From Escherichia phage ph0011, in sequence record OP557969.1: a DNA stretch of 64,000 bases; one strand, 5' to 3'. The notes beneath the pieces are model-generated. The model was not told where the DNA came from and made no database searches. It saw only the letters and a list, made by a program, of their open reading frames with translations. This document shows, in pieces, positions 17 to 56,026 of the stretch. Position 1 is the first letter of the stretch; every line of letters begins with the position of its first letter. Position numbers and translations under genes: made by a program.

Positions 17-265
17 ATGTATGTTAATGATAATAATTATAGTGTTAAATTATCATTCGATATTGTGTTGGATAAATTAACATTTACGGAATACACTACC
101 AATAAAACTTCATTTTTACACAAGTATAATAGAAAGGTATATAATCATATTTCTAGTTATTTAAATGAAGAATATTACTTTCAACAATCTACAATAGAAA
201 AAGTATTATTCAGTACTGAAGAATTAAAAGAATTATATTATTGGTATGAGAAATTTACATCTTGA
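17..265 (+). CDS. small protein, C-terminal EExFFQxST motif family
   Basis: ORF 82 aa; motif EEYYFQQSTIEKV. Confidence 0.5.
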   Translation: MYVNDNNYSVKLSFDIVLDKLTFTEYTTNKTSFLHKYNRKVYNHISSYLNEEYYFQQSTIEKVLFSTEELKELYYWYEKFTS

Positions 266-320
266 CATTATGGTGGTTTCATCTTACAATACAAGATAAT
301 GATGCGTTGAGGACAAATTC

Positions 321-731
321 ATGAGTATAGATTTACACAATGAACTACAATATTTTTTTGATTTGGATATATCACGTTTGAACAGACATGTCAATCATAT
401 ATCCAGAACTATATGGTGGTCTGATGAGGCTGATGAACCAAGGATTCAGATTTGTGATAATTTGTCAGTTTTAAGATTGTATGTTCTTGATACCGAAATG
501 AATATTATGATAACATACGTACCACCCACAAACAAACTTCTAATCAACACACTAAACCCAGATACAGTACTGAAAATTTTTGATTTGGATACGATACAGT
601 CAAGCGAAACACTATTCCAACGTTCATTGGTTGATGATCTAGGGGGTATTTCTTTTGACGATATATTAAAATTGAAGAAGATGTATAATGAATTATTAGA
701 GATTAAAAATACCGTTCTAATGGGGATTTAA
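321..731 (+). CDS. EExFFQxST motif family protein
   Basis: ORF 136 aa; motif SETLFQRSLVDDLGGISFDDI. Confidence 0.55.
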   Translation: MSIDLHNELQYFFDLDISRLNRHVNHISRTIWWSDEADEPRIQICDNLSVLRLYVLDTEMNIMITYVPPTNKLLINTLNPDTVLKIFDLDTIQSSETLFQRSLVDDLGGISFDDILKLKKMYNELLEIKNTVLMGI

Positions 732-732
732 T

Positions 733-1137
733 ATGGTAAGTTTATTAGATATTGATAATACTAGTCTGGTTCTGGTGAAAAAAGGATTAATTCCAAATTC
801 TAACAAGATTGATTATGCTGTTATTGAAACAAATATTGGGAATATCTGGTACGACTCTGAAAGAGACATTGTGTTTAGCTGTGTAGATAGTGATCGTTCT
901 GAGTGCTGTAGGGTTGGGCATGACGGACAATTTATTTTCGAATTTCGTTTCTGGAAAGATTCCAGATTTCACCAGGAGCATGTTTCAATTACAAATGTAA
1001 ATTGTAATGAAGAATCATTCTTCATGGAAAGTACTATTAATGATTTTGGCTCAGTTACTTTTGAGTACTATAAAAAAGTATATAACTTGTACAGAGAAGT
1101 AATTCGAATCATAAGAACCTCTGAGGGTCAAGATTAA
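733..1137 (+). CDS. EExFFQxST motif family protein
   Basis: ORF 134 aa; motif EESFFMESTINDFGSVTFE. Confidence 0.55.
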   Translation: MVSLLDIDNTSLVLVKKGLIPNSNKIDYAVIETNIGNIWYDSERDIVFSCVDSDRSECCRVGHDGQFIFEFRFWKDSRFHQEHVSITNVNCNEESFFMESTINDFGSVTFEYYKKVYNLYREVIRIIRTSEGQD

Positions 1138-1138
1138 T

Positions 1139-1516
1139 ATGACTACTACCATATATAATATTTTAGGTAACTTGAATAAAAACATAGATAATGATTTTGT
1201 TATAGTTGAAAACACTAAAAATATAATTCATCTACCATTGGGTACACCAGATAGGTTAATTTTTAACATATACGCTAACACACTGACATACATACACGAT
1301 GGTATGGTTATCGTTGTGCTTGATATTAAAGAAAATACAATACGATATGCATATGACTTTAACGTTTATTGGTCAAGAACTCATAGTATTGATATTGAGG
1401 AAGATGAACTTTTTCAATTATCGTTAATTGAGAAAAATGTAATAGGAGTTACCGAGATTGGTATTGTTAAAAAAGCTTTGGAATATGCAAATAAAAAAAT
1501 AAATGGCGAACTATGA
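1139..1516 (+). CDS. EExFFQxST motif family protein
   Basis: ORF 125 aa; motif EDELFQLSLIEKN; ATGA overlap with next gene. Confidence 0.5.
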   Translation: MTTTIYNILGNLNKNIDNDFVIVENTKNIIHLPLGTPDRLIFNIYANTLTYIHDGMVIVVLDIKENTIRYAYDFNVYWSRTHSIDIEEDELFQLSLIEKNVIGVTEIGIVKKALEYANKKINGEL

Positions 1517-1977
1517 TGAACATTGAGGAAATAAAAAATCATTTTGAAATTGCATTGTCTTGTGATTTTGATAGTTGTTATGTTACTGAACCAGAAGATA
1601 TAATTAGAATTTCCACATCGTTTTCAGAAGAATACAATATACTCATTGAGAAATCATATGACAGAACCGAACTCTCATTTTACAATAAGGATTTACGAAC
1701 AACATCATTTATATTATTATATAACACAACATCGGATATAATAGAGATTATAACAAGTAAAACAGGTAAAACAAGTAAAGATGTACATTATGAGACTATA
1801 CCAAATGTAAGTTATTGTTCAACAGAAGAAGGATACTTCCAGGAATCACTTATTAAAAATTTATCAGTTAGCTATTCTGATTTAAGCATTATAGTCAATT
1901 ATGTGGAAAAGTTAAATGATTTCGTTCTATCGATGTTTGATATCACTGAGCAAAAACCAAAGGAAATCAAATGTTAA
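1513..1977 (+). CDS. EExFFQxST motif family protein
   Basis: ORF 154 aa; motif EEGYFQESLIKNL. Confidence 0.55.
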   Translation: MMNIEEIKNHFEIALSCDFDSCYVTEPEDIIRISTSFSEEYNILIEKSYDRTELSFYNKDLRTTSFILLYNTTSDIIEIITSKTGKTSKDVHYETIPNVSYCSTEEGYFQESLIKNLSVSYSDLSIIVNYVEKLNDFVLSMFDITEQKPKEIKC

Positions 1978-2426
1978 ATCCTGGACATTTTTTTCATTTA
2001 CTGGACATTACACCTATACCCGATTTGATCAGCGAGACTAATCATTATCGTGATATTGGAATTGTATCAATGGAATATGATTCACCTGACTTTAAATGTT
2101 ACGTAACATACGATCAGGTGGCTTATGAGTCAGAGCCTGAGATTAAAAAACCATCATATATTTTTGTGTTCATATATAATGATTATAGTGGTGATGTACT
2201 GAATGATGTTCATATTGACACATTTGAAATATGTGGTAATATTATATCAGATGATTCAGCATCCACATTTGATTTGGAATTAAACAGTACTGAAGAGTCA
2301 CTTTTTCAGTTGAGTACTATATGTGATACTATATTAACTCTAGATGACATTGAGAAATTTAAAGAACAGCTTGACGCAGTTCGTGAGATGTTCTATAATC
2401 ATTATCCAGAAGTAGAGTTCAATTAA
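1971..2426 (+). CDS. EExFFQxST motif family protein
   Basis: ORF 151 aa; motif EESLFQLSTICDTILTLDDIEKF. Confidence 0.55.
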   Translation: MLNPGHFFHLLDITPIPDLISETNHYRDIGIVSMEYDSPDFKCYVTYDQVAYESEPEIKKPSYIFVFIYNDYSGDVLNDVHIDTFEICGNIISDDSASTFDLELNSTEESLFQLSTICDTILTLDDIEKFKEQLDAVREMFYNHYPEVEFN

Positions 2427-2440
2427 CTAAAGGTAATAAA

Positions 2441-3083: not shown

Positions 3084-4964
3084 ATGAAACCTATCCGAGT
3101 ACTATCTCTTTTTAATGGAATGAGTGTAGGATACATGGCATTAAAAGATGCTGGTATCCCTGTTGAAAAATATTATTCATCCGAAATTGACAAATTTGCT
3201 ATAGCTGAATCCCAAGCTAACTTCCCCGATATAATCCAATTGGGTGATGTAACTAAGTGGAGAGAATGGGATATTGAATGGGACAAGATAGATCTACTGA
3301 TGGGTGGTTTTCCATGCTTCCCAGCAGGAACTATGATAATGACAAATAAAGGTCATAAAGATATAAAAGATATAAAAATTGGTGATATGGTTCTTACACA
3401 CACTGGACAGTACCAAAAAGTATTGAGTACTGGTGTTAAAAAGGCTCCCACTCGTATTATTACGGGTCAAGGTCACCTTCCAATTGAATGTACCGATAAT
3501 CATCCATTTTGGAGTAGGGAACGTCTAGCCAATAAATGGAATAATCAACGCCGAAGATATGATTCTGTGTTTTCTGAACCGCAATGGGTAAATGCTATAG
3601 ATCTTACTAAACAAAGTTATATTTGTAATGTTAAAAATATTACACATAATACTGTAAGTGATAAAGATGAAAAATATTGGTATTTTGTTGGTCGTTTTAT
3701 GGGTGATGGATGTGCTAGTGTATCTAATAACAAATACAGTATTACTATTGTAGATTCATTAGATAAAGTTGATGAATTGAAAAAATGCTTTGATGATTTT
3801 GGATACAAATACACATTAGCTATTAAAGATAATCATGTAAGATGTGATATATATAGCAAAAAGCTTTATGATGAATTAATATGTATTGGGCATAAATCAC
3901 AAAACAAATGTTTACCACCTGAAATATTCAATGAAACTATCAATAACAAAGAAGCATTTATTAAAGGATACATGGATGCAGATGGTTGTGAGGATAAACA
4001 CAATAAAAAATACAAATTTACCACCACAAGTTATAAAATAGTTCTTGGTATGCAACAGTTAATCTTAGATACTTATCAAAGTCATTGTACTATTAGCCAA
4101 ACTGTTCCAAAAACAAAAAAATATATAAAAAATAAGTTGGTTAATCAGCTTCCGTATTGGAATGTTCATTTTAGCTATAATAAAATTAAAAGAGATGATG
4201 TAATATATGATGAAATTTATATATGGAATCGTGGTGTAAAAAGTAATGTACCAACCGGAGAATGGAAAACCGTTTACAATATTGAAGTTGCAGTAGATAA
4301 CACATATACAGCGAACAATATTGTAGTTCATAACTGCCAAGCGTGGTCAGTTGCAGGTAAACAGGGTGGAATAAATGATCCTCGTGGTATGTTATTCCAT
4401 ACAATGGTTGATATTTACCAGCACATAAAAAGTCTCAATCCAGACTTGAAAGTACTGTTCGAGAATGTTAAAATGAAAGAAGATTTCAAGCAATACATTA
4501 ATAGTGTTCTTGAGATGACACCAGTACTGATAAATTCCCAGCATTATACGCCTCACTTCAGGCAGCGATATTACTGGTACAGTACTGATAAACTTTTTAT
4601 ACCACCTGCATTATCCAATGCACCTAAACTTCAAGATATTATTGAAGATGGTTGGTACACTGACAGAACCGCTTCGTACTGTATAGATGCTAACTATTTT
4701 AAGGGTGGTGATTGTAACCAGTACTTTAATAAATCAAGAAGACAAATTGTTTTCAAAGAACCTGATATCGATAGGGATTTCCTTCTTGAACATGGTAAGC
4801 GAAATGTGGACTATCGTCATTTAACAGTACAAGAGTGTTGCATGTTGCAAGGAATTGATGTAAACTACTTCAAAGTTAGTAGTTCAACACAAGCATACAA
4901 AATGCTTGGGAATGGATGGACTATGCCAGTTATATCACACTTACTACGAGATATATTCTTTTGA
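3084..4964 (+). CDS. DNA C5-cytosine methyltransferase, intein-containing precursor
   Basis: 626-aa ORF. Exteins carry C5-MTase motifs: LSLFNGMSVGYMAL (motif I-like), GGFP|CQAWSVAGK (motif IV Pro-Cys split by the insert), DPRGMLF, VLFENV (motif VI), LTVQECCMLQGI, MLGNGWTMPV. Spliced product predicted ~286 aa. Confidence 0.85.
   Translation: MKPIRVLSLFNGMSVGYMALKDAGIPVEKYYSSEIDKFAIAESQANFPDIIQLGDVTKWREWDIEWDKIDLLMGGFPCFPAGTMIMTNKGHKDIKDIKIGDMVLTHTGQYQKVLSTGVKKAPTRIITGQGHLPIECTDNHPFWSRERLANKWNNQRRRYDSVFSEPQWVNAIDLTKQSYICNVKNITHNTVSDKDEKYWYFVGRFMGDGCASVSNNKYSITIVDSLDKVDELKKCFDDFGYKYTLAIKDNHVRCDIYSKKLYDELICIGHKSQNKCLPPEIFNETINNKEAFIKGYMDADGCEDKHNKKYKFTTTSYKIVLGMQQLILDTYQSHCTISQTVPKTKKYIKNKLVNQLPYWNVHFSYNKIKRDDVIYDEIYIWNRGVKSNVPTGEWKTVYNIEVAVDNTYTANNIVVHNCQAWSVAGKQGGINDPRGMLFHTMVDIYQHIKSLNPDLKVLFENVKMKEDFKQYINSVLEMTPVLINSQHYTPHFRQRYYWYSTDKLFIPPALSNAPKLQDIIEDGWYTDRTASYCIDANYFKGGDCNQYFNKSRRQIVFKEPDIDRDFLLEHGKRNVDYRHLTVQECCMLQGIDVNYFKVSSSTQAYKMLGNGWTMPVISHLLRDIFF
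3315..4334 (+). mobile_element. intein with LAGLIDADG homing endonuclease domain inside the C5-MTase gene
   Basis: Starts Cys (CFPAGTMIMT, block A), block B TDNHPF, two LAGLIDADG motifs (FVGRFMGDGC, FIKGYMDADGCE), ends IVVHN followed by +1 Cys of CQAWS; in frame, 340 aa. Confidence 0.8.
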
Positions 4965-5489: not shown

Positions 5490-6005
5490 ATGACAGTTCC
5501 GTATGTTAAAATTATTAACAATATCCTTGATTTATGGGAAGATGTTATTACCGGTAAAAAGAATCCAATACCAGTACACGTACTAACTGGAAGACTACAA
5601 TTCAGAATGTCTAACAAAACTGAAACGTTTAATAATCATGATATTTGTATTACATTAAAAACACCTGTTAGTATTGTAATTAAAAAAAATAAAGATGATG
5701 AATTGTCATTATCTATTGGTCGTGATAAAATTATTTTAAGTAATTTGTCTGAAGAAGAATTCTTTCAAAGAAGTACTATCATCGACATGAAAGATTTCAC
5801 ATATGAATCATTAGTAGAACTCAATACACGTTTTGATGATATTCAGGAACGATTGCGACCAATACTCCGTAGAGAAGAAGAAGCCTGGATTGAAAGTATG
5901 AAGAAGATGCAAGAAATGTTAAAAGAAAATATTAACAATCTTGGTAAAACAACAATGGAAATTGGTAAAACTTTAAAACTCAACTTTTCAAAGGATCGTA
6001 AATGA
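5490..6005 (+). CDS. EExFFQxST motif family protein
   Basis: start moved to MTVPYVKII after terminator; motif EEEFFQRSTIIDM. Confidence 0.5.
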   Translation: MTVPYVKIINNILDLWEDVITGKKNPIPVHVLTGRLQFRMSNKTETFNNHDICITLKTPVSIVIKKNKDDELSLSIGRDKIILSNLSEEEFFQRSTIIDMKDFTYESLVELNTRFDDIQERLRPILRREEEAWIESMKKMQEMLKENINNLGKTTMEIGKTLKLNFSKDRK

Positions 6006-6454
6006 AAATCGATGAACTGATTTATATTTTAGGTAACTTGCACAAAATATTGTTACATCGCAACGAGATGAATAAACTAGGGTATAATATAACTAATTTA
6101 AATGAAACATCATTTAAATATAACTCAATCACTGGTGGAAATTATAATATTGTGTATTGTCATGAAACTGACCCTGACTGCTATCAACTTACGTTATACT
6201 TTTATCCAACAAACCCTACCATTGTTCAAGACATATCATCAATATCACTTGACCCAGATGGTGAAATGAGTATAGAATATAGCTATGATTCTAAAAAAGA
6301 ATGTTACGTTGAAGATATGAAAAATATGTTTAACGATGCATATGTGTTCCAGCTAAGTACTGTACATGATGTTGGAAGTACTAATGGGCAATTTTGGAAT
6401 ACATGCTATTATCATATGATTGGAATTTGTAAATTACTAAAAGGCGATGATTAA
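6002..6454 (+). CDS. EExFFQxST motif family protein (divergent)
   Basis: ORF 150 aa; motif DAYVFQLSTVHDVG. Confidence 0.5.
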   Translation: MKIDELIYILGNLHKILLHRNEMNKLGYNITNLNETSFKYNSITGGNYNIVYCHETDPDCYQLTLYFYPTNPTIVQDISSISLDPDGEMSIEYSYDSKKECYVEDMKNMFNDAYVFQLSTVHDVGSTNGQFWNTCYYHMIGICKLLKGDD

Positions 6455-6837
6455 TGAAATACAGCATTGAAGTACATTACACTACTGGTGATACTGAAAA
6501 TCAATATAACATAGTTAAGACCATTGATGTTCAATGGGATACTAAAGAGGAAGCAGTTGCTGCTTTACAGTGTCTAAAAGAGCATTGGGTGTTTTATATG
6601 AAGCAAGATAATTGCCATACAAAAGAACGCGAAACTATCGTTAAAAATGCTAAACAAAAAGAGTGGTTTGACCCAATTTCACCAGAATATTCATTTTTGG
6701 TTAAAGTTGGTGGCGTGACAGTACCCTTACGAACACCGTGGAACGGCTACTTTGAAACTCTTCATAATGCACGAGTTGTCGCTGTTGACAATCCTGAACA
6801 AATCGATTTTGATTCATTGGACTGGAAAAAATTATGA
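6454..6837 (+). CDS. hypothetical protein
   Basis: ORF 127 aa, ATGA-coupled. Confidence 0.45.
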   Translation: MKYSIEVHYTTGDTENQYNIVKTIDVQWDTKEEAVAALQCLKEHWVFYMKQDNCHTKERETIVKNAKQKEWFDPISPEYSFLVKVGGVTVPLRTPWNGYFETLHNARVVAVDNPEQIDFDSLDWKKL

Positions 6838-7277
6838 CAGTACTGCACCAATTGAAGAAGGTTAAGCATCCAGTTGTATATGAGGACTGGAAACGTCAGA
6901 AGCTGATGGGTGACTTTTATTACCCAAAATCTAAAGTTCTTGCGAATTCAAGATGTACATATATCAAACATAACGATAAAGATACAGTATTTGTTGAAAT
7001 GGGGTTCAATCCATCAAATACAATGTTCAGTACTAACCAAACATTTTACAAATTTCATATCCAAAAAGATGTATTTTCTATTAAAATTATAAAACATTTA
7101 GTTGAAGATCTGGTATACAGTGAAGAAAGAGTTCCTTTATCATTAGTGGATATTCCTTATAATAATTTAGAGGAAATGTACTTCCAACAGTTGACAGTAC
7201 AAGAAAACTTTGGTATGATAGGACTTCAAGAGTTAGAGATGATTAAGCAAATTCGTGATATCTACTTTAAGGGGTAA
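6834..7277 (+). CDS. EExFFQxST motif family protein (divergent)
   Basis: ORF 147 aa; motif EEMYFQQLTVQENFGMIGLQELE. Confidence 0.5.
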   Translation: MTVLHQLKKVKHPVVYEDWKRQKLMGDFYYPKSKVLANSRCTYIKHNDKDTVFVEMGFNPSNTMFSTNQTFYKFHIQKDVFSIKIIKHLVEDLVYSEERVPLSLVDIPYNNLEEMYFQQLTVQENFGMIGLQELEMIKQIRDIYFKG

Positions 7278-7607: not shown

Positions 7608-7750
7608 TGGTGTATACTAACATTTTTACTGGTATTATGCGTAAGTTTGTTAATGGTATTGGATATGTATCCAATGACAACGGTAGTACATGGGTAAAAA
7701 ATAATACGTCCGAATCTTTAGTGAAAAGTCTTCCGTATTATAAAGCTTGA
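7607..7750 (+). CDS. small hypothetical protein
   Basis: 47-aa ORF (MVYTNIFTGIM...). Confidence 0.3.
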   Translation: MVYTNIFTGIMRKFVNGIGYVSNDNGSTWVKNNTSESLVKSLPYYKA

Positions 7751-7775
7751 CACATGAAAATGGAGTATGTATAAT
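7746..7775 (+). promoter_or_regulatory. sigma70-type early promoter
   Basis: TTGACA (7746-7751), 18-nt spacer, TATAAT (7770-7775). Confidence 0.55.
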
Positions 7776-9397: not shown

Positions 9398-9684
9398 AAA
9401 TTTTAGAAGTTTTACTTGAAAAAGATGCATCTGGTACTCTTTATGTTGGTAATGATTTCAGTCCTGATCCAATTGATATGATACAGCGTATTCAATCACT
9501 GACCCAATCAATTTCAGTTAAACAACCTTTCCTAAAAGAATTGGAAATTCATTGCGATAAAGACATGGAGCAGCATGATAATGTTATTTCTGATATCAAA
9601 AATCTGTTGACAAAGAATGGATATGTGGAGTATAATCCTCCTATCGTAATCGTTATCCCTGACTTCATGAGAGGAACATTGTAA
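9394..9684 (+). CDS. hypothetical protein
   Basis: ORF 96 aa ATGA-coupled. Confidence 0.45.
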   Translation: MKILEVLLEKDASGTLYVGNDFSPDPIDMIQRIQSLTQSISVKQPFLKELEIHCDKDMEQHDNVISDIKNLLTKNGYVEYNPPIVIVIPDFMRGTL

Positions 9685-11553: not shown

Positions 11554-11946
11554 ATGACTGAATCAGAACTACATGAAATGATAGATTTCATTTATGAAAT
11601 GATACAAGATAAAAATATCATTAATACAATTACTTCTGGTCCAAGACAAATTGGTAATCAAATGACATATTCTTTATCTTTATGGATAAACCAGAACTAC
11701 AAAGTTGATTGTTTGTATTTCCGTCCTGATATTGATGCTTATTATTTTGTCAATCATGATGCATTAATGAAACCACATAAGCGTCCAGTTGATGATAACT
11801 TTGTGACACACCCATTTTACCTTGCTGAATCAGAGGAAGATGAGTTTCAAAAGAACACAACGTTAAGCCCAGGTGAAATTTGCATCCCTTACACACTAAA
11901 AGATAAAATGATTTACATCACAGAAGTTATGAAAACATGCTGGTAA
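11554..11946 (+). CDS. EExFQ motif family protein (divergent)
   Basis: motif EDEFQKNTTLSPGEI. Confidence 0.45.
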   Translation: MTESELHEMIDFIYEMIQDKNIINTITSGPRQIGNQMTYSLSLWINQNYKVDCLYFRPDIDAYYFVNHDALMKPHKRPVDDNFVTHPFYLAESEEDEFQKNTTLSPGEICIPYTLKDKMIYITEVMKTCW

Positions 11947-12564: not shown

Positions 12565-13053
12565 ATGCCGATTCGTGGTGTACCAGACCCAATACGTGAA
12601 ATTCTTAAGCACATTCGCATTGAAACACTAGAAGTTAACATGCGTCGTTATAATATATATTACTTTAAAACTTCCGAAATGAGTTCTGTACAGATTGTCA
12701 TTGGTACATCTATTAAGATTACTCGTGTACTTGATGGCAGTACTGACTTTGTTGAATACAACGTACTTACTAATAAAGTAACACATACATATAAATGGAG
12801 TGGATATAAAACTATTAAATATGAGTTTGACTTAGCTAGAACCGAAGAAGAACGATTCATGTTGAGTACTATAAATCCAGAAAACTATCCTGACATTGAT
12901 ACATTTTTGCTAATTTTAAAATTGTATAATAAAGCAAATGAGAAAGCTAAAGAGTACAATAGAATCATGTATGAACGCAAAAAAGAACGTGTACAAAAAA
13001 GTTATGATCTGTATGATAACCCATACGTGAAATATAGTAAGGGAAAGAAATGA
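12565..13053 (+). CDS. EExFFQxST motif family protein
   Basis: motif EERFMLSTINPEN; start at MPIRGV. Confidence 0.5.
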   Translation: MPIRGVPDPIREILKHIRIETLEVNMRRYNIYYFKTSEMSSVQIVIGTSIKITRVLDGSTDFVEYNVLTNKVTHTYKWSGYKTIKYEFDLARTEEERFMLSTINPENYPDIDTFLLILKLYNKANEKAKEYNRIMYERKKERVQKSYDLYDNPYVKYSKGKK

Positions 13054-13454
13054 ATAATGAAGTTCAAATTATCATTACTCCACCTATACAAAGTCTGGAT
13101 GTAACCATTAGCGATTTTTTGGAAAAATACTATGAATGGTTTAATGAAGATTCAGTCATTTATAACCATTCATTAACGGATGGTTTTGTTGAGCTTATTG
13201 AATTAAATTCCAAATCGCTATATTTCTGTGTCGAATACAATGATTATATGACCGATGAAGCATATCGCTTTCGTTGTACATTATATCCTAACCATTTTTC
13301 TATTGGTTATAAAGACTATCAGTACTGTACCACTAACTATAGTGAAGAGGAAGAATTTCAGTACAATTTACTTTATCCAGATTTGGATTATACTATCGCA
13401 GTACTGTTGTCTAAAATCATGGATTTTTATAAAGGTAAATGTAATGCAACCTAA
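13050..13454 (+). CDS. EExFQ motif family protein (divergent)
   Basis: motif EEEFQYNLLYPDLDY. Confidence 0.45.
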   Translation: MNNEVQIIITPPIQSLDVTISDFLEKYYEWFNEDSVIYNHSLTDGFVELIELNSKSLYFCVEYNDYMTDEAYRFRCTLYPNHFSIGYKDYQYCTTNYSEEEEFQYNLLYPDLDYTIAVLLSKIMDFYKGKCNAT

Positions 13455-13625: not shown

Positions 13626-13808
13626 ATGACACACAAAGAATGGTTAGATGAACTAAAGTTCAAACATGATCATTTTGGTCTTGGTATACGCCAGGGTCAT
13701 TATGATGTGTTAAAAGATAAACAACTTTTCAAATCATTTGTACTTGATGAGGATAGTAATCACTGGTACATCTATGAGCTTGCGGTTAGAGACAAAAAAA
13801 TTGACTAG
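13626..13808 (+). CDS. MTHxEW small-protein family member
   Basis: MTHKEWLDELKF...YIYELAVRD; paralog of 14354/15611/15772/15933. Confidence 0.5.
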   Translation: MTHKEWLDELKFKHDHFGLGIRQGHYDVLKDKQLFKSFVLDEDSNHWYIYELAVRDKKID

Positions 13809-13853: not shown

Positions 13854-14357
13854 ATGCTCATTACGCATGTACCGGAAAGTATTACTGAGATTTTAAGTAA
13901 AATTAATGTTAATGAATTTGAACGAACAGTTCGAAAACAAGGTACTTATCACTATAAGCACAAAGATGGTGAACATCAAATAAGCTTAGATCAGAATTAT
14001 CAAACTCTAACAATTAAAATGGTTACTCGCTGGAATTTTATTCGTAAAGATACTATTATCTGTGATTTTGGTAAAAGACTACTTAGAAAATGTTTCTCTG
14101 AAACAAATGGTATCTATCCAAACCCGAATAGAATTTTCACATATAAATACATCACAGATGAAGATGTACATTTTCAAGAGAGTTTGGTATGTGATAATAA
14201 GTACTTTCCCGCATTTTCAGATAATTTGAAGTTAAAAGAACTATATAACTATTTCTTAAACGACAATATTCAGTGGGATGAAGAATTAAAACAACGACAG
14301 ATAGAACGTGAAAAGAAAAAAGTCTGGACTGGTTCACATTGGATGCAACGTAAATGA
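13854..14357 (+). CDS. EExFFQxS motif family protein (divergent)
   Basis: motif DVHFQESLVCDNKYF. Confidence 0.45.
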   Translation: MLITHVPESITEILSKINVNEFERTVRKQGTYHYKHKDGEHQISLDQNYQTLTIKMVTRWNFIRKDTIICDFGKRLLRKCFSETNGIYPNPNRIFTYKYITDEDVHFQESLVCDNKYFPAFSDNLKLKELYNYFLNDNIQWDEELKQRQIEREKKKVWTGSHWMQRK

Positions 14358-14524
14358 CACATGAAGAATGGATGTCTATTATGAAAGAACGATATGATCT
14401 GTTTGGGAATGGATTTCGTGATGGTCATTACGATATTTTACGAGACAAACAACAGTTCGATTTATATGTACTAGATGAGGATGGAAATCGATGGTTCATA
14501 TATGAGCTTGCATTTAGGGAATAG
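14354..14524 (+). CDS. MTHxEW small-protein family member
   Basis: MTHEEWMSIMKERYDLFGNGFRDGHYDILRDKQQF...FIYELAFRE. Confidence 0.5.
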   Translation: MTHEEWMSIMKERYDLFGNGFRDGHYDILRDKQQFDLYVLDEDGNRWFIYELAFRE

Positions 14525-14834: not shown

Positions 14835-14862
14835 TTGACAACCTCAGTATATTTGCTATAAT
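14835..14862 (+). promoter_or_regulatory. sigma70-type early promoter
   Basis: TTGACA-N16-TATAAT. Confidence 0.55.
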
Positions 14863-15389: not shown

Positions 15390-15506
<117 letters not shown>

Positions 15507-15511
15507 AAAAG

Positions 15512-15585
15512 ACGGGGTATAGCACAATTGGATAGTGCAAGAGAATTCTAATCTCTAGGTTGGGGGTTCAAGTCCCTCTACCTCG
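15512..15585 (+). tRNA. tRNA-Arg (anticodon TCT)
   Basis: acceptor CGGGGTA/TACCTCG (one G-U), D stem GCAC/GTGC, anticodon stem AGAGA/TCTCT loop ATTCTAA, T arm GGGGG-TTCAAGT-CCCTC. Confidence 0.7.
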
Positions 15586-15610
15586 GCCTACTTTAATTAA
15601 AGGTTAAACC

Positions 15611-15775
15611 ATGACGCATGAAGAATGGATGAATGACATTAATTTTAGATATGCAGGTATCGGTAACTGGAGAAAGTATCATTGGGAAATCATATCAGAC
15701 CCAGCAGAATACGATAAACTTATGAATCATGAAGTGTATCCGTGGTTCTTTATTGAAATAATGGTACGATTATGA
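15611..15775 (+). CDS. MTHxEW small-protein family member
   Basis: MTHEEWMNDINFRYAGIGNWRKYHWEI...; ATGA overlap. Confidence 0.45.
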   Translation: MTHEEWMNDINFRYAGIGNWRKYHWEIISDPAEYDKLMNHEVYPWFFIEIMVRL

Positions 15776-15932
15776 CACATGAAGAATGGATGAATGACAT
15801 TAATTTTAGATATTCGGGTATCGGTAAATGGCTAAAGTATCATTGGGAATTCATTTCAGAGCCACATCTGTATGATAAACTTATCAACGATTCTGCATAT
15901 AAAATGTACTTAATTGAACTACTGGTACGAAT

Positions 15933-15936
<4 letters not shown>
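15772..15936 (+). CDS. MTHxEW small-protein family member
   Basis: MTHEEWMNDINFRYSGIGKWLKYHWEF... Confidence 0.45.
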
Positions 15937-16105
<169 letters not shown>

Positions 16106-16108
16106 AAG

Positions 16109-16553
<445 letters not shown>

Positions 16554-16581
16554 GTATCTTAATAACAGAAGGTATATTGAA

Positions 16582-16821
16582 ATGAGTAAGTATTTTGTGA
16601 GTTATAGTTATAATGTATCACGAAAGATTCCACGTGGTGACGGAATGGGATGGTCTTATGATGCATATACTTTAAATGAGTCATGTATCATCGAATTAAA
16701 AGAAAAAGACCTTGACATTTTAAAAATCAAACAATATATTCTTGATGTTGAATTGGCACATCGTACTGATATCTATCCAGATGTAAATAACATCAGCATC
16801 TTAGTACTAACCAAAGTATAA
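16582..16821 (+). CDS. hypothetical protein
   Basis: start MSKYFVSY after AAGG. Confidence 0.45.
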   Translation: MSKYFVSYSYNVSRKIPRGDGMGWSYDAYTLNESCIIELKEKDLDILKIKQYILDVELAHRTDIYPDVNNISILVLTKV

Positions 16822-16827
16822 GATAAA

Positions 16828-16861
<34 letters not shown>

Positions 16862-17215
16862 GAATTCCACAATCAGACGTATATGGTGTAAGTTACGTCG
16901 ATGCAATCCAGAACAAGATCTCTGGTACTCTAGGAAGTGGTTAATGTTAACCTAGACGGGTTTGATAATTGGACGATAGGCAATTATTACTTGACTAGCA
17001 GGTTTAAACTAGAGGTGACTATCCTTCACCAAACTGGAAAACCGGATGGACTTTTATTTAAAAGGGTAAGGCGTGGAAATATGTTTACAGTAGTTGCTTT
17101 TAGTAGCCTGTACGCCCCACGTCAAGGTAGCCGAAAGGCAAGTTAAAACGGGTGGTTATAAAGCTGAATTAACAGCGGCGTTTAAAAGCGTCACCATCCA
17201 TTTTTTTTAATTAAA
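16862..17215 (+). ncRNA. candidate structured stable RNA(s), unclassified
   Basis: ~350 nt directly downstream of an early promoter, ending in a T-run, with no RBS-associated ORF and locally higher GC; sits in the tRNA cluster. Confidence 0.35.
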
Positions 17216-17224
17216 GTTGGTGAT

Positions 17225-17863
<639 letters not shown>

Positions 17864-17882
17864 CTTTTTAATTTAAAAGTAC

Positions 17883-17910: not shown

Positions 17911-17936
17911 GTAAACAAAAGGATAAAATAAAACTC

Positions 17937-18461
<525 letters not shown>

Positions 18462-39896: not shown

Positions 39897-40469
39897 ATGA
39901 ATCGTAAAGGTCGTTTTAAGGTATCAAAGAAGAACAAAAGTTCTAGATTTAAGCCTATAGTTTTAACCGTTAAAGCCAAAGCGGAATTAACTGCACTTAG
40001 TAAAAAGATTATTTCATCTAAGATCAAAATATCATATATAAATTCAGTAAAATATCATAATGTCAAACCACGAGATCAACTTATTTCACTCATATTTAAA
40101 CGTAATGATTTTGAGATATCAGTGGATGATTATAGAGCCTATAATGCTGGTTTCATTAATGTTATTTGTACTACAGAACTAACTGAATTAGAACATTTGT
40201 CATGTATAGTAAATCTCGATAAAGGTGTAGTGAAATACCACTTTGTACATTTTACTAATATTAATGATGGAAAGGGTGTACAATCCAGAACTATAGTACC
40301 TACATGTGATGTGACTAAATTATCAAAGCTCAATGACGAAGAATATTTTCAAGAAAGTACTGTAACTGAATATATAGATGAAATTATAGCAACTTACAAA
40401 GAATGTATATGGGTTTTAAATGCAATGAAGCCTAAATTATGTTTGATGAATATTGTACGTGATTTATGA
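39897..40469 (+). CDS. EExFFQxST motif family protein
   Basis: motif DEEYFQESTVTEYIDE. Confidence 0.55.
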   Translation: MNRKGRFKVSKKNKSSRFKPIVLTVKAKAELTALSKKIISSKIKISYINSVKYHNVKPRDQLISLIFKRNDFEISVDDYRAYNAGFINVICTTELTELEHLSCIVNLDKGVVKYHFVHFTNINDGKGVQSRTIVPTCDVTKLSKLNDEEYFQESTVTEYIDEIIATYKECIWVLNAMKPKLCLMNIVRDL

Positions 40470-43817: not shown

Positions 43818-44156
43818 ATGGAACAATATTTTGAATTAATTAATAAAGTGTCATTCTATGTAGTGTCATTGACGTGGGTTTATTTCATGTTTTGCTACAT
43901 TATTGCATTCTTCCGATATACTACTTTATATGAACGTATCTATTATGATGCACCAATTTCATTCTTGGTGTTCTGTGCATGTACGTGGGGAATATTAGAA
44001 GTACTGATATGTGGATATAGAACTGATGAATTAAATCTGGTATCGGTATTGACTGGGTTATCACTTGGTGTTATGATATCTTTCTTTCCAGTATGGTTGT
44101 TCTTTGAACTGATCCATCGCATTGATGTATGGCGTTCTAATATCCCTGAAAAATAA
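43818..44156 (+). CDS. small membrane protein family A, member 1
   Basis: TM-rich; C-terminal IHRIDVWRSNIPEK. Confidence 0.5.
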   Translation: MEQYFELINKVSFYVVSLTWVYFMFCYIIAFFRYTTLYERIYYDAPISFLVFCACTWGILEVLICGYRTDELNLVSVLTGLSLGVMISFFPVWLFFELIHRIDVWRSNIPEK

Positions 44157-44159
44157 GGA

Positions 44160-44507
44160 TTGATAATGATTTTCTACACTAATTCGTTTGCTTATGCTAT
44201 TGCATCAATCTACATTGTGTACTTCTTATTTGGTGGAGTACTGTACTTCTTTAAGTACAAAACATTGTTTAACAGAATGTATCCAAATCACCCAATTGTA
44301 GTAGTACTTTTGATAATTTCTGTTGCTCATATCATTGTAGAAACAATAATGGGTATCAGTGCAGTACATTACAGTCTAGGTACTATTGTAATTATTACTA
44401 TGATCATAGCATACATTTTAGTAATGGGTTCTGGTTTATTTGGGAATGTAGCAATGAAAATGTATAATCGAATCAAAACATTACGTGATAATCTACCGGA
44501 GCGTTGA
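44160..44507 (+). CDS. small membrane protein family A, member 2
   Basis: C-terminal KTLRDNLPER. Confidence 0.5.
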   Translation: MIMIFYTNSFAYAIASIYIVYFLFGGVLYFFKYKTLFNRMYPNHPIVVVLLIISVAHIIVETIMGISAVHYSLGTIVIITMIIAYILVMGSGLFGNVAMKMYNRIKTLRDNLPER

Positions 44508-44508
44508 G

Positions 44509-44853
44509 TTGTATAATTTAAATTTAATATCATATATCATAACAACAATGTTTACTTTCTATGCCTTTGTTGGTATAATCCTACTGTACTTTAAATTTTA
44601 TAAAGTCTTTGACCGTTTATTTCCATCATTGGAACATGAATTCTTATTGGTGATGTACATCTGTTTAACGTGTATGTCTACATTTTTCACTGTATTTGAT
44701 GGTATCATTGGTATTAAAGCTGAATATCCAAATGGAAGTACACTTGTTGCCTTTATACTGGTAGGATTCTTCGGTACTTATATCACTTTCATTTCAACAT
44801 GGTCTGTGGTTGATTATCTCATTAGATTACGAAATAAAATGCCAAATCGATAG
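44509..44853 (+). CDS. small membrane protein family A, member 3
   Basis: C-terminal IRLRNKMPNR; start uncertain (TTG 44509 after GGAG, or ATG 44548). Confidence 0.4.
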   Translation: MYNLNLISYIITTMFTFYAFVGIILLYFKFYKVFDRLFPSLEHEFLLVMYICLTCMSTFFTVFDGIIGIKAEYPNGSTLVAFILVGFFGTYITFISTWSVVDYLIRLRNKMPNR

Positions 44854-45501: not shown

Positions 45502-45529
45502 TTGACAAACAGATTTAGTACTGTATAAT
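45502..45529 (+). promoter_or_regulatory. early promoter
   Basis: TTGACAAACAGATTTAGTACTGTATAATG. Confidence 0.65.
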
Positions 45530-52552: not shown

Positions 52553-52894
52553 ATGCTTGAGTTTTTTAATTCAAATACAATGCTTGGTATTACTTTAATT
52601 TACATGTTTGTATTTTTGTTTTATCATTCAATTGTAATTAGCCTGTGGTATTTTAAAAGGAAAGTTGTTTTTAAATTGTATTCGTATGATAATGTATTCT
52701 TAGTTGTATATAGTATTGTACAAGGTGGGTTTATTTTATTTGGTATTATGACTTATTTCATTTATCGATTGGAAATTGATAATACACCACACATTACACA
52801 ATATGTTGTGTTTTCTGGACTAATCGTGTGGTTGTTGACATGTGTCGTGTACTTTATTATTAAAGCTCGTGACAAAATTAAAGGGGAATTCTAA
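52553..52894 (+). CDS. small membrane protein family A, member 4
   Basis: LWYFKRK after TM1; C-terminal ARDKIKGEF. Confidence 0.5.
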   Translation: MLEFFNSNTMLGITLIYMFVFLFYHSIVISLWYFKRKVVFKLYSYDNVFLVVYSIVQGGFILFGIMTYFIYRLEIDNTPHITQYVVFSGLIVWLLTCVVYFIIKARDKIKGEF

Positions 52895-53232
52895 TGTTAA
52901 CATTTTTTCAGTCAGATACAATGATTAGTATTACGTTGATTTATCTGTTTGGATTTTTCTTTTATCATGCACTAGTTGTAGTACTATGGTATTTTAAAAA
53001 GAATATAGTTTTCAAACTGTATCCTAAAGGAAACGTTTCATTACTTCTTTTCACTATTATCCAAGGTATCTTTGCAATTTTTGGTATTACTGCACATTTA
53101 ATTTATTGTGCTAATCCACATTTGAACTCAATATCACAATACATTGTATTTTTTGGATTACTAATTTGGGTACTAATATACGTAACTAATCTCATCATTA
53201 ATGGTAGAGCTAAAATTCACGGAGACTTTTAA
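52894..53232 (+). CDS. small membrane protein family A, member 5
   Basis: close paralog of 52553 (MLTFFQSDTMISITLIY...). Confidence 0.5.
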   Translation: MLTFFQSDTMISITLIYLFGFFFYHALVVVLWYFKKNIVFKLYPKGNVSLLLFTIIQGIFAIFGITAHLIYCANPHLNSISQYIVFFGLLIWVLIYVTNLIINGRAKIHGDF

Positions 53233-53579
53233 TGTTTGAATCTTATCTTGACTTTTTAAGGAATAGTCCAGTAGCACACTCACTTGCTGGGATTGTTCTA
53301 TCAGGCTATATCACATTTTGGGTAGTTATGTTTCTAGGATGGTATTTTAAACGACAATTCTATAAGCGTAACGGTGAAGATTTTATGAATTCTGCTATTA
53401 ATCAATCGTTGTTTGCATCAACATTGATAGCATCAATTGTAGCAACACTCACTGGTGCAGTTCTATCAGCATTCGCCGCAGTTTACGGCACACTTGGAGT
53501 GGTATGTTTATCTTTAATATTGATCATTAAACTTTGTTGTGTTATGATTGAACTTCGAAATAAGATACCGGAGGAATGA
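53232..53579 (+). CDS. small membrane protein family A, member 6
   Basis: GWYFKRQ; C-terminal ELRNKIPEE. Confidence 0.5.
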   Translation: MFESYLDFLRNSPVAHSLAGIVLSGYITFWVVMFLGWYFKRQFYKRNGEDFMNSAINQSLFASTLIASIVATLTGAVLSAFAAVYGTLGVVCLSLILIIKLCCVMIELRNKIPEE

Positions 53580-53914
53580 TGGAGTATTTTATTGATTTAC
53601 TGCCGTGGTATATGAAAGTGAGTATTTTATACTATATTATTAGTACTGGATTCTACTTCCTGATGTGGTTTTTTAAACGACCAATTTCAGTGTACATTGC
53701 TGATAACATGCTGCAATTAAAATTACAAGCATGGTTTTATATGGCGATGTTTATGCCTATTATTCACTATTCAATGATTAGTCTAGGTTTACGTTCTAAT
53801 GGTGAACCAATTGTATTAGTATTCTATTGGACTTCAACTCTAGTATATGTCGGTTTGTTGTTATACCCAATCGTTCATATATTACGTGCTAAAGTTCCTG
53901 ATGCGAGGTACTAA
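53576..53914 (+). CDS. small membrane protein family A, member 7
   Basis: WFFKRP; C-terminal LRAKVPDARY. Confidence 0.5.
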   Translation: MMEYFIDLLPWYMKVSILYYIISTGFYFLMWFFKRPISVYIADNMLQLKLQAWFYMAMFMPIIHYSMISLGLRSNGEPIVLVFYWTSTLVYVGLLLYPIVHILRAKVPDARY

Positions 53915-54228
53915 TGGATATAGTAACATTGATTTACACGTTGTATTCATTCTATTTTATTATGTGTTGGATTGGATTTTTATTTGTACTGAAGACGTTT
54001 GATTATGTTGAAAGACAGATAAAAGAATTTTGTATTCCTTTTATTGGGTCAACCATAATTAGTATTACTTGTTTGTATTATTTGGTATGTGATCCACCAG
54101 ATAACACTGCAATGATTGACTTTATGTTAGCACCAACTACTGTTATTTTTTTATGTAGTCTGCTGCCACCTATTAGTCGTGGGTTAGCAGAATTTAGACG
54201 CAAACAAAAGCTTAAACGAGGGATGTAA
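53914..54228 (+). CDS. small membrane protein family A, member 8
   Basis: tandem position, TM-rich, basic C-terminus. Confidence 0.45.
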   Translation: MDIVTLIYTLYSFYFIMCWIGFLFVLKTFDYVERQIKEFCIPFIGSTIISITCLYYLVCDPPDNTAMIDFMLAPTTVIFLCSLLPPISRGLAEFRRKQKLKRGM

Positions 54229-54596
54229 TGGAAATCACACTTATTATATTAACTTCTATGTTGTTTATTAGTACAGTTGTTATTATTGGCAAGTTCTTCT
54301 GTGTATCCTTCTTGGAAACCGTATATGATGAAATTGCAGATGATTATGAATTAGAAGCAGGATTTTTTATTACGTATTGGGTTAGTTTATTACTGCTTAT
54401 CACAGTATGGGTTTTGCATATATTCCAATGGGGTATGGTTGGTGATGATCCATTACTGGGAATTATTTGTGCGACATTTGGGCTACTGACTGGTGCTGCC
54501 CACAATCTGATAGTAATTGTGCAAACTATAAAATGCGTATTAGTTCCACATTTTCAGAGAATGCACCAAAACATTAAACGCCGCAAACGAGGTTAA
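54228..54596 (+). CDS. small membrane protein family A, member 9
   Basis: tandem position, TM-rich, basic C-terminus. Confidence 0.45.
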   Translation: MEITLIILTSMLFISTVVIIGKFFCVSFLETVYDEIADDYELEAGFFITYWVSLLLLITVWVLHIFQWGMVGDDPLLGIICATFGLLTGAAHNLIVIVQTIKCVLVPHFQRMHQNIKRRKRG

Positions 54597-54597
54597 T

Positions 54598-54960
54598 ATG
54601 AACGGGATAGAGTTATCTGTGTTTGGTCAATCACTAATAATTATTAATACTTTCTTTTTCTCACTTAATTCATTTATGTGTATTGGGAAGTATTTTCATA
54701 AACGACCATTATCAAATATATATGATGTAATTCAAACGAGATATAGTCCAGCATATACTATAGTTATTAGCAGTTTCAATTTTGGTTTTGTTTTATTAGT
54801 AATTGGAATGTTAACATCAACGTTGAATATCATCACATTCGGTCTTATGATATGTTCATTGGCATTAACATTAGTTATATGTTGTTTAGTACTACACCTT
54901 ATGGTTCTATTATATTTAAAGATATATGAAATTCACCACCGCTTAGGTACGAGGAAATGA
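54598..54960 (+). CDS. small membrane protein family A, member 10
   Basis: GKYFHKRP; TM-rich. Confidence 0.45.
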   Translation: MNGIELSVFGQSLIIINTFFFSLNSFMCIGKYFHKRPLSNIYDVIQTRYSPAYTIVISSFNFGFVLLVIGMLTSTLNIITFGLMICSLALTLVICCLVLHLMVLLYLKIYEIHHRLGTRK

Positions 54961-54961
54961 T

Positions 54962-55333
54962 ATGAGTTATCGTGAAGTATTTTCTATAATTTCAATTATT
55001 ATGTTCAGTGCTGGAACATTGATTTGGTTACTATACTTTTTCTGTATTAATCCAGTGTATAATATGTTATGCAATATTAAATCAAGTACTGGCTATATGA
55101 CTTTTATGATCTTTATGGGATATTATTGTCTAAGCATTTTAGGTGTTTTTTTTGTTGTTATATTTGATATAGGGCCAAACAAGGACGGTCTACAAATGTA
55201 TGAGTTAATAACTATGTTTGGGTGTATGATACCAACCGCACTAATGTTTGTAGCTATTGGTTCTGGATGTATAAAGTTATACAATTATTTAAAATCCATT
55301 CATCATTACATTCATAATAAACGTATGTCCTAA
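54962..55333 (+). CDS. small membrane protein family A, member 11
   Basis: tandem position, TM-rich. Confidence 0.45.
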   Translation: MSYREVFSIISIIMFSAGTLIWLLYFFCINPVYNMLCNIKSSTGYMTFMIFMGYYCLSILGVFFVVIFDIGPNKDGLQMYELITMFGCMIPTALMFVAIGSGCIKLYNYLKSIHHYIHNKRMS

Positions 55334-55337
55334 TAAA

Positions 55338-55370
55338 AATCCAGTACTGAATAGTACTGGATTATTTGAG
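55338..55370 (+). terminator. rho-independent terminator
   Basis: AATCCAGTACTGAATAGTACTGGATTATTT. Confidence 0.55.
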
Positions 55371-55378
55371 GTAGAGCA

Positions 55379-56026
55379 ATGAAATCGAAATTAGGTTTGT
55401 TTTACAGTAATTATTTTGTTAAGCAGCGTAAATTTATAAAGAAATACTTCTCCACAGAGAAGTCCGGTCCTATTATTTTTAAAAGATCAAAATATCATAC
55501 TTACTTAGCTGGTGTTAAACAGTCTAAAAAATTTATTGCTCTATTAAATAAAAATAAAGTGAAAGCTTCTTATGTTGAAACCAGAAAGAATTCCCCTATA
55601 ACTCCTAGTGATTTTATTGAGTACGGGTGTTTTTATATTGAGAATAATGGTAACACCTATTTTATGGATATTGATTGTAATACATCGAATCTTTTTAACA
55701 TTGTAATAAAACCATCAAAACAATATAATATTTATGGTGATGCTATTATCAAATTGATCAAAAACAAAGATTGGTTTGATTTTGAAATAAATGTTTTAGA
55801 TGAAAATTTTGATGAAGTACCCATTAACCCTGAAATTTGTGATATTCTAAATAGTTTAAAAGGTAGTAGCTACAATATAACATCTGATTTAATGTTTCAG
55901 TACTCTTTAATACATAAAGATATTGAAGATTATATTGTGTGTGCTAAAATCTTGAATTATCTGTATGATGAATTTAAAAAGAGTTCTAAAATCACAGCAT
56001 TCACCCTTTATAATATTTCTGTATAA
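55379..56026 (+). CDS. hypothetical protein, distant EExFFQxST-family relative
   Basis: C-terminal SDLMFQYSLIHKDIEDY. Confidence 0.45.
   Translation: MKSKLGLFYSNYFVKQRKFIKKYFSTEKSGPIIFKRSKYHTYLAGVKQSKKFIALLNKNKVKASYVETRKNSPITPSDFIEYGCFYIENNGNTYFMDIDCNTSNLFNIVIKPSKQYNIYGDAIIKLIKNKDWFDFEINVLDENFDEVPINPEICDILNSLKGSSYNITSDLMFQYSLIHKDIEDYIVCAKILNYLYDEFKKSSKITAFTLYNISV

Follow-up and report, generated by a model that had tools for sequence, protein, structure and literature searches.

Expansions of a single small domain have been described in several jumbo phages: Bacillus phage G carries about 35 copies of a zinc ribbon (PMC7824862), phAPEC6 has 11 RCC1-like genes (PMC7247149), and the authors of the RaK2 genome report that about 10% of its proteins are paralogues, with nothing further on them (PMC3622015). 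We analysed a stretch of 64,000 nucleotides of Escherichia phage ph0011 (sequence record OP557969.1; the whole stretch is called the window below), in which 21 plus-strand genes form, judging from their sequences, one family of small proteins with the signature [ST]-E-E-x-[YF]-F-Q-x-S-[TL]-[VI]-x-D. Like the expansions above, this one consists of a small domain multiplied in a jumbo phage, mostly in tandem arrays. Unlike them, it concerns a previously unnamed domain, reaches more copies (47, about 8% of the genes), and is ancient and conserved in order across genera rather than recently amplified. We found no prior description of the family as such in the literature and databases searched; publications on 121Q, PBECO4, phAPEC6, UE-S1, Sharanji, fEgEco12, RaK2 and CBB, together with a comparative review of jumbo phages, do not describe it.

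The window has a G+C content of 29-36%, and up to 56 kb nearly all of its coding sequence is on the plus strand. Matches to the first 6.5 kb come from 36 phage records, which all belong to Asteriusvirus, a genus of jumbo phages (here from Escherichia or Salmonella, with sizes of about 310-386 kb). The closest of these is UE-S1, with 90% identity, and the window is therefore, as far as sequence similarity tells, a distinct relative of 121Q and PBECO4, that is, an E. coli jumbo phage of the 121Q/PBECO4 type. Its counterpart in 121Q lies at roughly 59-120 kb. Other genes of the window encode a sigma factor, methyltransferases, nucleases and a protein kinase, for which the annotation of 121Q gives inhibition of host transcription.

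The shared motif defines a protein family

An earlier note on this DNA had listed 22 plus-strand genes sharing the motif near their C terminus. A pattern for the core of the motif, [FYLM][FM]Q.[SCNL][TLMF][IV], was found in 14 plus-strand open reading frames (ORFs) of the window and in none of the 144 ORFs of the minus strand. We then used a hidden Markov model (HMM) of the region of about 40 residues, iterated on all six-frame ORFs of the window with a sixfold set of reversed or shuffled controls. This module HMM converged on 19 ORFs at E<2e-4, while the best control reached E=0.0036, so that the motif does not fall within random expectation. Against circularity, an independent C-terminal profile was built from 118 relatives, excluding Asteriusvirus sequences, and it recovered 19 window members at E<0.01 (best control, 0.079). 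A full-length family HMM (235 sequences, 147 positions) brought in the genes starting at 12565 (2e-20) and 13050 (6e-5), and aligned most members over nearly the entire model. Two genes, 13050 and 55379, were matched only by profiles containing Asteriusvirus sequences. These results confirm that the motif family is far beyond chance, which is effectively excluded.

Codon usage at the conserved residues is mixed: Phe is encoded by TTT 11 times and by TTC 6 times, Gln by CAA and CAG 8 times each, and Ser by both AGY and TCN codons. This free use of synonymous codons shows that what is selected is the protein sequence, not a DNA repeat, and rules out a DNA-level element such as a cassette for recombination or regulation.

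With strand and shuffle controls, the HMMs support 20 of the 22 genes listed earlier; of the other two, 17225 is borderline and 11554 is unsupported. The gene at 21248-21679, which had been missed, completes the set of 21. The members, the borderline gene and two promoters lying directly upstream of members are given below.

17-265, plus strand: family member, C-terminal 82 residues only (gene cut by the start of the window); module HMM E=1.3e-15, non-Asteriusvirus C-terminal profile E=1.4e-8
262-290, plus strand: consensus sigma-70 promoter, TTGACA-17-TACAAT, 31 nt upstream of the five-gene array 321-2426
321-731, plus strand: family member, 136 residues, first in the five-gene tandem array; full-length HMM E=1.2e-22; RaK2 orthologue gp349, 27% identity over 92% of the length
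733-1137, plus strand: family member, 134 residues; full-length HMM E=2.5e-19; 1-nt gap to the preceding member
1139-1516, plus strand: family member, 125 residues; full-length HMM E=2.9e-12; 1-nt gap
1513-1977, plus strand: family member, 154 residues; full-length HMM E=3.8e-20; 4-nt ATGA overlap with the preceding member
1971-2426, plus strand: family member, 151 residues, net charge -24, isoelectric point (pI) 4.05; full-length HMM E=3.7e-17; 7-nt overlap
5490-6005, plus strand: family member, 171 residues, charged C-terminal extension; full-length HMM E=4.5e-17, non-Asteriusvirus C-terminal profile E=5.5e-14
6002-6454, plus strand: family member, 150 residues, acidic pair of the motif degraded (DAYVFQLST); full-length HMM E=7e-14; 4-nt overlap
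6834-7277, plus strand: family member, 147 residues; full-length HMM E=6.3e-17
12565-13053, plus strand: family member, 162 residues, basic, motif Q replaced by M; full-length HMM E=2.4e-20, non-Asteriusvirus C-terminal profile E=6.5e-5
13050-13454, plus strand: family member, 134 residues, divergent motif EEEEFQYNL; full-length HMM E=6.4e-5, missed by the independent C-terminal profile; 4-nt overlap with 12565
13854-14357, plus strand: family member, 167 residues; full-length HMM E=1.8e-11; no reciprocal best hit in 121Q
16110-16137, plus strand: consensus sigma-70 promoter, 32 nt upstream of 16169
16169-16525, plus strand: family member, 118 residues, the smallest; full-length HMM E=3.7e-17; second structure model (AlphaFold2, AF2; predicted local distance difference test score, pLDDT, 91.2; predicted template modelling score, pTM, 0.82), with the motif as helix 85-94
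17225-17599, plus strand: probable divergent member, borderline, 124 residues, DEADEFQKRT, motif Ser lost; HMM E=0.0059 over positions 32-142; hhalign probability 35%, E=3.9e-4, 41 columns
19838-20254, plus strand: family member, 138 residues; full-length HMM E=6.9e-28; orthologues 61-93% identical in 36 Asteriusvirus records
20247-20612, plus strand: family member, 121 residues; full-length HMM E=3.5e-20; 8-nt overlap
21248-21679, plus strand: family member, 143 residues, EDMYMQLNF, absent from the earlier list; full-length HMM E=1.3e-21, N-terminal-only profile (other genera) E=2.7e-5
21688-22092, plus strand: family member, 134 residues; full-length HMM E=1.8e-24; first structure model (AF2 pLDDT 84, pTM 0.76), with the motif as helix 101-110
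22094-22501, plus strand: family member, 135 residues, motif Q replaced by M; full-length HMM E=1.9e-24, N-terminal-only profile E=4.5e-5
34804-35322, plus strand: family member, 172 residues, isolated copy; full-length HMM E=7.5e-19
39897-40469, plus strand: family member, 190 residues, basic N-terminal extension, pI 9.3; full-length HMM E=1.3e-13
55379-56026, plus strand: family member, 215 residues, long N-terminal extension, acidic pair degraded (TSDLMFQYSL); module HMM E=6.9e-7, full-length HMM only 0.019; TH47 orthologue with canonical EEQLFQYSL

Members are often adjacent and translationally coupled, as had been noticed: 12 of the 21 are in tight tandem, with 1-nt gaps or 4-8-nt overlaps (the distances between tandem members are 1, 1, -4, -7, -4, -4, -8, 8 and 1 nt). 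The 82 residues previously given for 17-265 are not the true length of this protein, the gene being truncated by the window edge; its UE-S1 orthologue has 396 bp, or about 131 codons. The gene at 11554-11946 was rejected as a member, because hhalign aligned it over 19 columns covering only the motif (probability 9.7%), and because early profile support for it was circular, the query alignment already containing it. This gene and 17225-17599 have in common a variant, DEFQK-x-T, in which the conserved Ser of the family is lost; they may be a divergent side branch or unrelated.

Members are predicted to be single domains

The motif had been interpreted as a shared effector or targeting module of about 40 residues, fused to N-terminal halves unrelated in sequence and length. 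Its position in the proteins speaks against this, since it starts 77-111 residues from the N terminus in 20 of 23 candidates, and at residue 90-120 or so in distant relatives. We searched 1.84 billion cluster representatives (public data clustered at 50% identity) exhaustively with the profile and obtained 259 proteins at E<=1e-3. Among the 150 of these that were listed, lengths range from 62 to 190 residues and are mostly 115-175, and most proteins cover nearly the whole profile.

Structure prediction, which the earlier note had suggested for the module, was carried out with AF2 on single chains of two divergent proteins, 21688 and 16169, and yielded the same compact domain for both, with the motif as its second helix. 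The model of 21688 (47 sequences; pLDDT 84, pTM 0.76) has a helix at 6-19, six strands, a helix at 101-110 (EDMFFQLSTV) and a last helix at 118-132. That of 16169, from a different sub-group (135 sequences; pLDDT 91, pTM 0.82), has a helix at 3-14, five strands, a helix at 85-94 (EEEYFQTSTV) and a last helix at 101-117. The motif region is the part of highest confidence in both. The predicted domain would thus comprise an N-terminal helix, an antiparallel sheet of 5-6 strands and two C-terminal helices, the motif being the second helix of the protein.

The N-terminal halves are indeed very divergent. By BLASTP and iterated HMM they connect only within two sub-clusters (19838/20247/21248/21688 and 12565/13854), which explains why they seem unrelated by eye. 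Nevertheless, a profile restricted to the N-terminal part (positions 1-106, from 118 non-Asteriusvirus relatives) placed six family members as the top six among about 350 ORFs of the window, with E-values from 2.7e-5 to 0.019. The fixed position of the motif, the full-length profiles, the N-terminal profile and the AF2 models all point to the genes being very divergent full-length paralogues of one small single-domain protein, and not carriers of a module on unrelated heads.

The motif helix

We tabulated conservation in 162 sequences, non-redundant at 70% identity. The best conserved positions are [TS]109 (82%), E110 (91%), E111 (85%), F114 (98%), Q115 (91%, otherwise Met), S117 (91%) and D121 (76%); further conserved columns are [YFL]113, [TL]118, [VIL]119 and [LFI]122, and the last helix, after the conserved string, has a hydrophobic i, i+3, i+7 pattern. 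On a helical wheel, E110, F114, S117/T118 and D121 occupy one face, E111, Q115, V119 and L122 the adjoining one, and positions 112, 116, 120 and 123 are variable. Since the conserved polar residues fall on the same faces as F114, V119 and L122, we read the motif not as a detachable docking peptide but as an element that holds the fold together, or that lines a pocket formed by helix and sheet. The motif helix would pack on the sheet, its Thr/Ser-Glu-Glu start resembling a helix cap, and either a network or a pocket could be made by the conserved polar residues. A protease site of the tobacco etch virus (TEV) type (E-x-x-Y-x-Q / S or G) was rejected: in the family the residue after Gln is variable, the Ser comes one position later, and the segment is predicted to be an ordered helix, with pLDDT above 90.

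Size, distribution and age of the family

The earlier note had called 22 copies in 64 kb extraordinary. The expansion is genuine and large, and this figure understates it, with about 47 copies per genome. In TH47 (MT446416), a complete Asteriusvirus genome of 352 kb, 47 ORFs are detected at E<1e-3 and 55 at E<0.01, and all 47 are coded on the same strand (47:0). They comprise the cluster equivalent to the window, a second cluster at 54.8-81.4 kb whose roughly 27 genes are more divergent, and three outliers at 336-351 kb. As this second cluster and the outliers lie outside the window-equivalent region, the window holds less than half of the family. Taking about 550-600 genes per genome, the family accounts for about 8% of them. 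In 121Q, 21 members were found in the scanned 0-150 kb, all within 58-133 kb. The RaK2-like Klebsiella phage OU509535 has 37 members, again on one strand (37:0), and a metagenomic contig of 113 kb has 18 in 20 kb, adjoining an intein-bearing cytosine methylase as in the window. Named relatives that carry the family are RaK2, phiKp_21, K64-1 and Muenster, the Salmonella phages Munch, SE_PL, 7t3 and PHA46, and Klebsiella phage fENko-Kae01. A tblastn search with the HMM consensus against a phage collection gave almost nothing, apparently owing to the low-complexity filter and the short signal, a first family alignment matched only 17 close orthologues in database searches, and an improved one only orthologues that are unnamed or called hypothetical.

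TH47 and the RaK2-like genome share 21 reciprocal-best pairs, with 25-57% identity, and throughout the cluster equivalent to the window these keep their gene order. No two paralogues of TH47 are more than 47% identical, and only 17 of the 47 have a paralogue detectable by BLASTP. The low identity of paralogues, together with ordered orthologues across genera, indicates that the expansion is old and that copies have been individually retained. We propose that tandem duplications produced it in an ancestor shared by 121Q-like and RaK2-like jumbo phages, with some 40-50 copies kept per genome. There is also turnover: 13854 lacks an orthologue in 121Q, and the content of the cluster at 19.8-22.5 kb varies among Turkey5, JNE01, A4 and PBECO4.

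Many of the orthologues labelled Escherichia coli or Salmonella enterica at NCBI sit on contigs of 345-360 kb that are whole Asteriusvirus-like or Munch-like phage genomes within assemblies of bacterial isolates, which suggests carrier-state or contaminating jumbo phages.

Selection, charge and expression context

Every member is under purifying selection, with ratios of non-synonymous to synonymous substitution rates (dN/dS) of 0.07-0.56. The family nonetheless evolves faster than the neighbouring small genes: its median amino acid identity to 121Q is 74.5%, against 88.4% for the neighbours (p=7.5e-5), its dN is 0.164 against 0.064 (2.5-fold higher), and its dN/dS 0.24 against 0.155 (p=0.008). 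The proteins are also mostly acidic, with a median pI of 4.8 and net charge of -9, compared with 6.6 and 0 in the neighbours; among distant relatives, 80% have a pI below 5.5. A hydropathy scan found no segment resembling a transmembrane helix in any member, with nearby membrane-protein genes as working positive controls; by this criterion the proteins are soluble, and a membrane or secreted location was rejected.

Matches to the sigma-70 consensus (at least 11 of 12 positions of TTGACA-N16-18-TATAAT) number 31 on the plus strand of the window and 0 on the minus strand, where 3.4 +/- 1.9 are expected. Several are directly upstream of family genes or arrays; other examples on the plus strand are at 7747-7775, 9607-9636, 14835-14862, 24754-24781 and 45502-45529. 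The strand bias of promoters is also seen genome-wide in TH47. For the related phage CBB, the corresponding region, with its RpoD-like promoters, short hypothetical ORFs and sigma factor, has been proposed to serve early host take-over (PMC5259590). By its promoter consensus, the region of the window likewise looks like an early-gene region, from which we infer early expression.

Mass spectrometry of phAPEC6 virions identified 62 proteins, with no entry between gp078c and gp149c, an interval that includes family genes such as gp120c, gp121c and gp127c-gp132c. Virion proteomics of this related phage thus indicates that the window-equivalent members are non-virion proteins. The annotation of 121Q describes none of the family members as structural in the scanned 0-150 kb, which include the window-equivalent region.

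Comparison with known families

The earlier note had recognised no named domain in the motif, and our searches agree. No Pfam family was matched by more than one of 135 members, NCBIfam gave no match, the family profile matched no PDB sequence, and fold searches provided no function for the family. In PHROGs the family is scattered over at least 33 groups, all of function unknown (phrog_17453, 24941, 24510, 24321, 23322 and at least 28 more); matches of window members to their own PHROG have E=1e-42 to 1e-115, while those to the PHROGs of other members are weak. In a viral structure library, the only good matches were uncharacterised proteins of GAP32 and RaK2. Hypothetical proteins of RaK2, K64-1, Munch/SE_PL, fENko-Kae01 and GAP32 are the same proteins or orthologues. 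Databases thus hold them as dozens of unrelated groups, in which the single family, its motif, its fold and its 40-50-fold expansion have gone unrecognised.

Among described folds, MAM33/p32/gC1qBP (PF02330), a homotrimer shaped like a doughnut in which each chain has an N-terminal helix, seven antiparallel strands in succession and a C-terminal pair of helices, resembles the phage family in its acidity and, going by the models, perhaps in the order of its secondary structures. It differs in having seven strands and about 200 residues, against 5-6 strands and 118-170 residues, and membership finds no support in the sequences: hhalign against human p32 (sequence verified against 1p32) gave a probability of 0.09%, and none of 135 members hit PF02330. 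The fold search with the first model (21688) did not retrieve MAM33/p32 chains. We consider any likeness topological, and not a sign of membership. Nor does the family have the features of the polo-box domain (a six-stranded sheet with one helix, tandem pairs and a phosphopeptide-binding His/Lys pincer), or structural or sequence similarity to the anti-CRISPR AcrIF13. The SUKH/SMI1-KNR4 and Imm families were rejected as well, because SUKH_6 (E=0.021), Imm30 (0.029) and CdiI_4 (0.025) each matched a single one of 135 members, at chance level.

Other genes of the window

Seven tRNA genes (Ser x3, Arg, Met, Asn and Thr) are scattered between family genes at 15419-19821, a stretch which also contains a gene resembling HNH homing endonucleases (17937-18461). 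The tRNA and HNH complement of this region varies among related genomes. At 3084-4964 lies a cytosine-5 DNA methyltransferase gene of 626 codons, split by an intein-like insert; its orthologues in 121Q and phAPEC6 have only 861 bp, and a metagenomic orthologue, also beside family genes, matches Pfam DNA_methylase, Hint_2 and, faintly, LAGLIDADG.

The window contains further sets of paralogues. Five small proteins of 54-60 residues (13626-13808, 14354-14524, 15611-15775, 15772-15936 and 15933-16097) begin with MTHEEWM in four cases and MTHKEWL in one, and their genes are interleaved with the main family and the tRNA genes. Multi-pass membrane proteins of about 104-123 residues with similar short basic C-terminal tails form arrays of 3 (43818-44853) and 8 copies (52553-55333), another expanded family of the same region. 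The sole minus-strand block of the window, at 56068-62335, consists of five RCC1-like paralogues of 373-449 residues that share the N-terminal motif (I/L)PF(G/A)RM(I/M/V)(K/N)YGN; they are annotated in 121Q as chromosome-condensation regulators, and some were found in virions by mass spectrometry of phAPEC6. Finally, 62439-63286 contains the first genes of another family, of about 70-83 residues, the 121Q counterpart of which comprises about 17 consecutive genes for proteins of about 60 residues (genes 249-265).

Proposed role and alternatives

Polymorphic-toxin immunity loci encode small acidic alpha+beta proteins as tandem diverged paralogues that bind toxins one-to-one. Such SUKH/Imm arrays have no homology with the phage family, which also lacks adjacent toxin genes, and serve here as a working analogy for a one-to-one binder mechanism. 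By inference only, a role as early binders of host or defence proteins is the most likely. Host RNA polymerase would transcribe the family genes at the start of infection, and each paralogue would bind or inhibit, stoichiometrically, a different host, defence or toxin protein, its variable sheet surface and loops setting specificity while the motif would hold the fold together. Taken together, single-domain paralogues, an old tandem expansion, early expression by the host polymerase and a role as binders or inhibitors of host, defence or toxin proteins make up a reading that we consider moderately probable.

Several points weigh against it. The mechanism is a deduction for every member, early expression is read from a promoter consensus, and non-virion status from proteomic data on the virions of related phages. 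The description as acidic binders does not apply to all, six window members being neutral to basic. Homology of the N-terminal parts is weak, with E-values of 3e-5 to 0.02 beside a best shuffled control of 4.7e-4, and reaches only about six window members, while the two AF2 runs used overlapping family alignments, which makes their agreement not fully independent. Burial of the motif was deduced from helical periodicity, and invariant E, E, Q, S and D at a mean column identity of about 9% would be expected in a binding or catalytic site more than in a purely structural helix. Lastly, conserved housekeeping roles would explain the long one-to-one retention of paralogues no less well than an arms race.

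The polar residues of the motif are where other explanations begin. Five of them are nearly invariant in 162 very divergent sequences, beyond the usual needs of a fold, almost all the sequence signal lies in the C-terminal third, and 40-50 paralogues are retained per genome, as would fit adaptors in which an invariant helix-2/helix-3 surface docks all paralogues on one partner (a host protease, RNA polymerase or chaperone, or a phage protein) and the variable sheet recruits targets. This recasts inside one domain the earlier idea of a shared binding domain with diversified heads. We regard it as rather unlikely, because the conserved residues lie on helical faces with the buried-looking F114, V119 and L122, the variable positions forming the remaining face, and because the motif is the most ordered and most confidently modelled part of both predictions. 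That all of some 45 paralogues plug via the invariant helix into one hub, their variable sheets bringing in different host or defence proteins, would be a combinatorial adaptor system with a logic comparable to that of the expanded F-box/BTB or poxvirus ankyrin-PRANC adaptor families; we hold it to be unlikely. If instead E, E, Q, S and D lined a pocket between helix 2 and the curved sheet, the proteins could be sponges for a ligand, metal or nucleotide, or small enzymes. The pattern of conserved polar residues would suit this, and the phage sponge proteins Tad1, Tad2 and Acb2 are likewise small early proteins, but at least 40 paralogues with hypervariable surfaces are hard to square with one class of ligand, and no known sponge or enzyme family was matched in Pfam, PDB sequences or NCBIfam, which leaves this possibility quite doubtful.

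Two further explanations concern the architecture and location of the proteins. A truly modular architecture, in which an independent C-terminal module of about 40 residues has been recombined onto unrelated N-terminal domains, would account for N termini that BLASTP and iterated HMM fail to connect outside two sub-clusters. It is very unlikely in view of the fixed motif position and full-length profile alignments, the recognition of members by an N-terminal profile from other genera, the same single-domain model for members of different sub-groups, and the conserved order of full-length orthologues between genera. Packaging in the virion and injection, with the motif as a common targeting or processing signal as in the internal proteins of T4, could be suggested by a short motif common to many small proteins of a T4-related phage and by the superficial likeness of E-x-x-Y-F-Q-x-S to a protease site (TEV, ENLYFQ/S). 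However, none of the 62 virion proteins of phAPEC6 is a family gene of the window-equivalent region, none of the members at 0-150 kb of 121Q is annotated as structural, and the motif is internal or C-terminal instead of N-terminal and predicted to be a well-ordered helix. Virion targeting is thereby largely refuted and, being extremely improbable, effectively excluded.

Implications

E. coli, Salmonella and Klebsiella are hosts of Asteriusvirus and RaK2-like jumbo phages, which are under characterisation for therapy although no function is known for over 80% of their genes. Our results bring dozens of their hypothetical proteins, from at least 33 PHROG groups, together in one family that has a defined signature and a fold predicted with confidence, and that makes up about 8% of the genes. 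Much of what seems to be the early-gene dark matter of these phages can thereby be approached through one family. As the motif would belong to the fold, whole proteins, and not the C-terminal 40 residues, would be suited to experiments. The interest of the family lies in its size, its age and its conservation in medically relevant phages, and in being directly testable. Since the paralogues are old and their positions individually conserved across genera, each probably has its own target, and the family would then be a ready panel of about 45 related probes for targets of host take-over or counter-defence.

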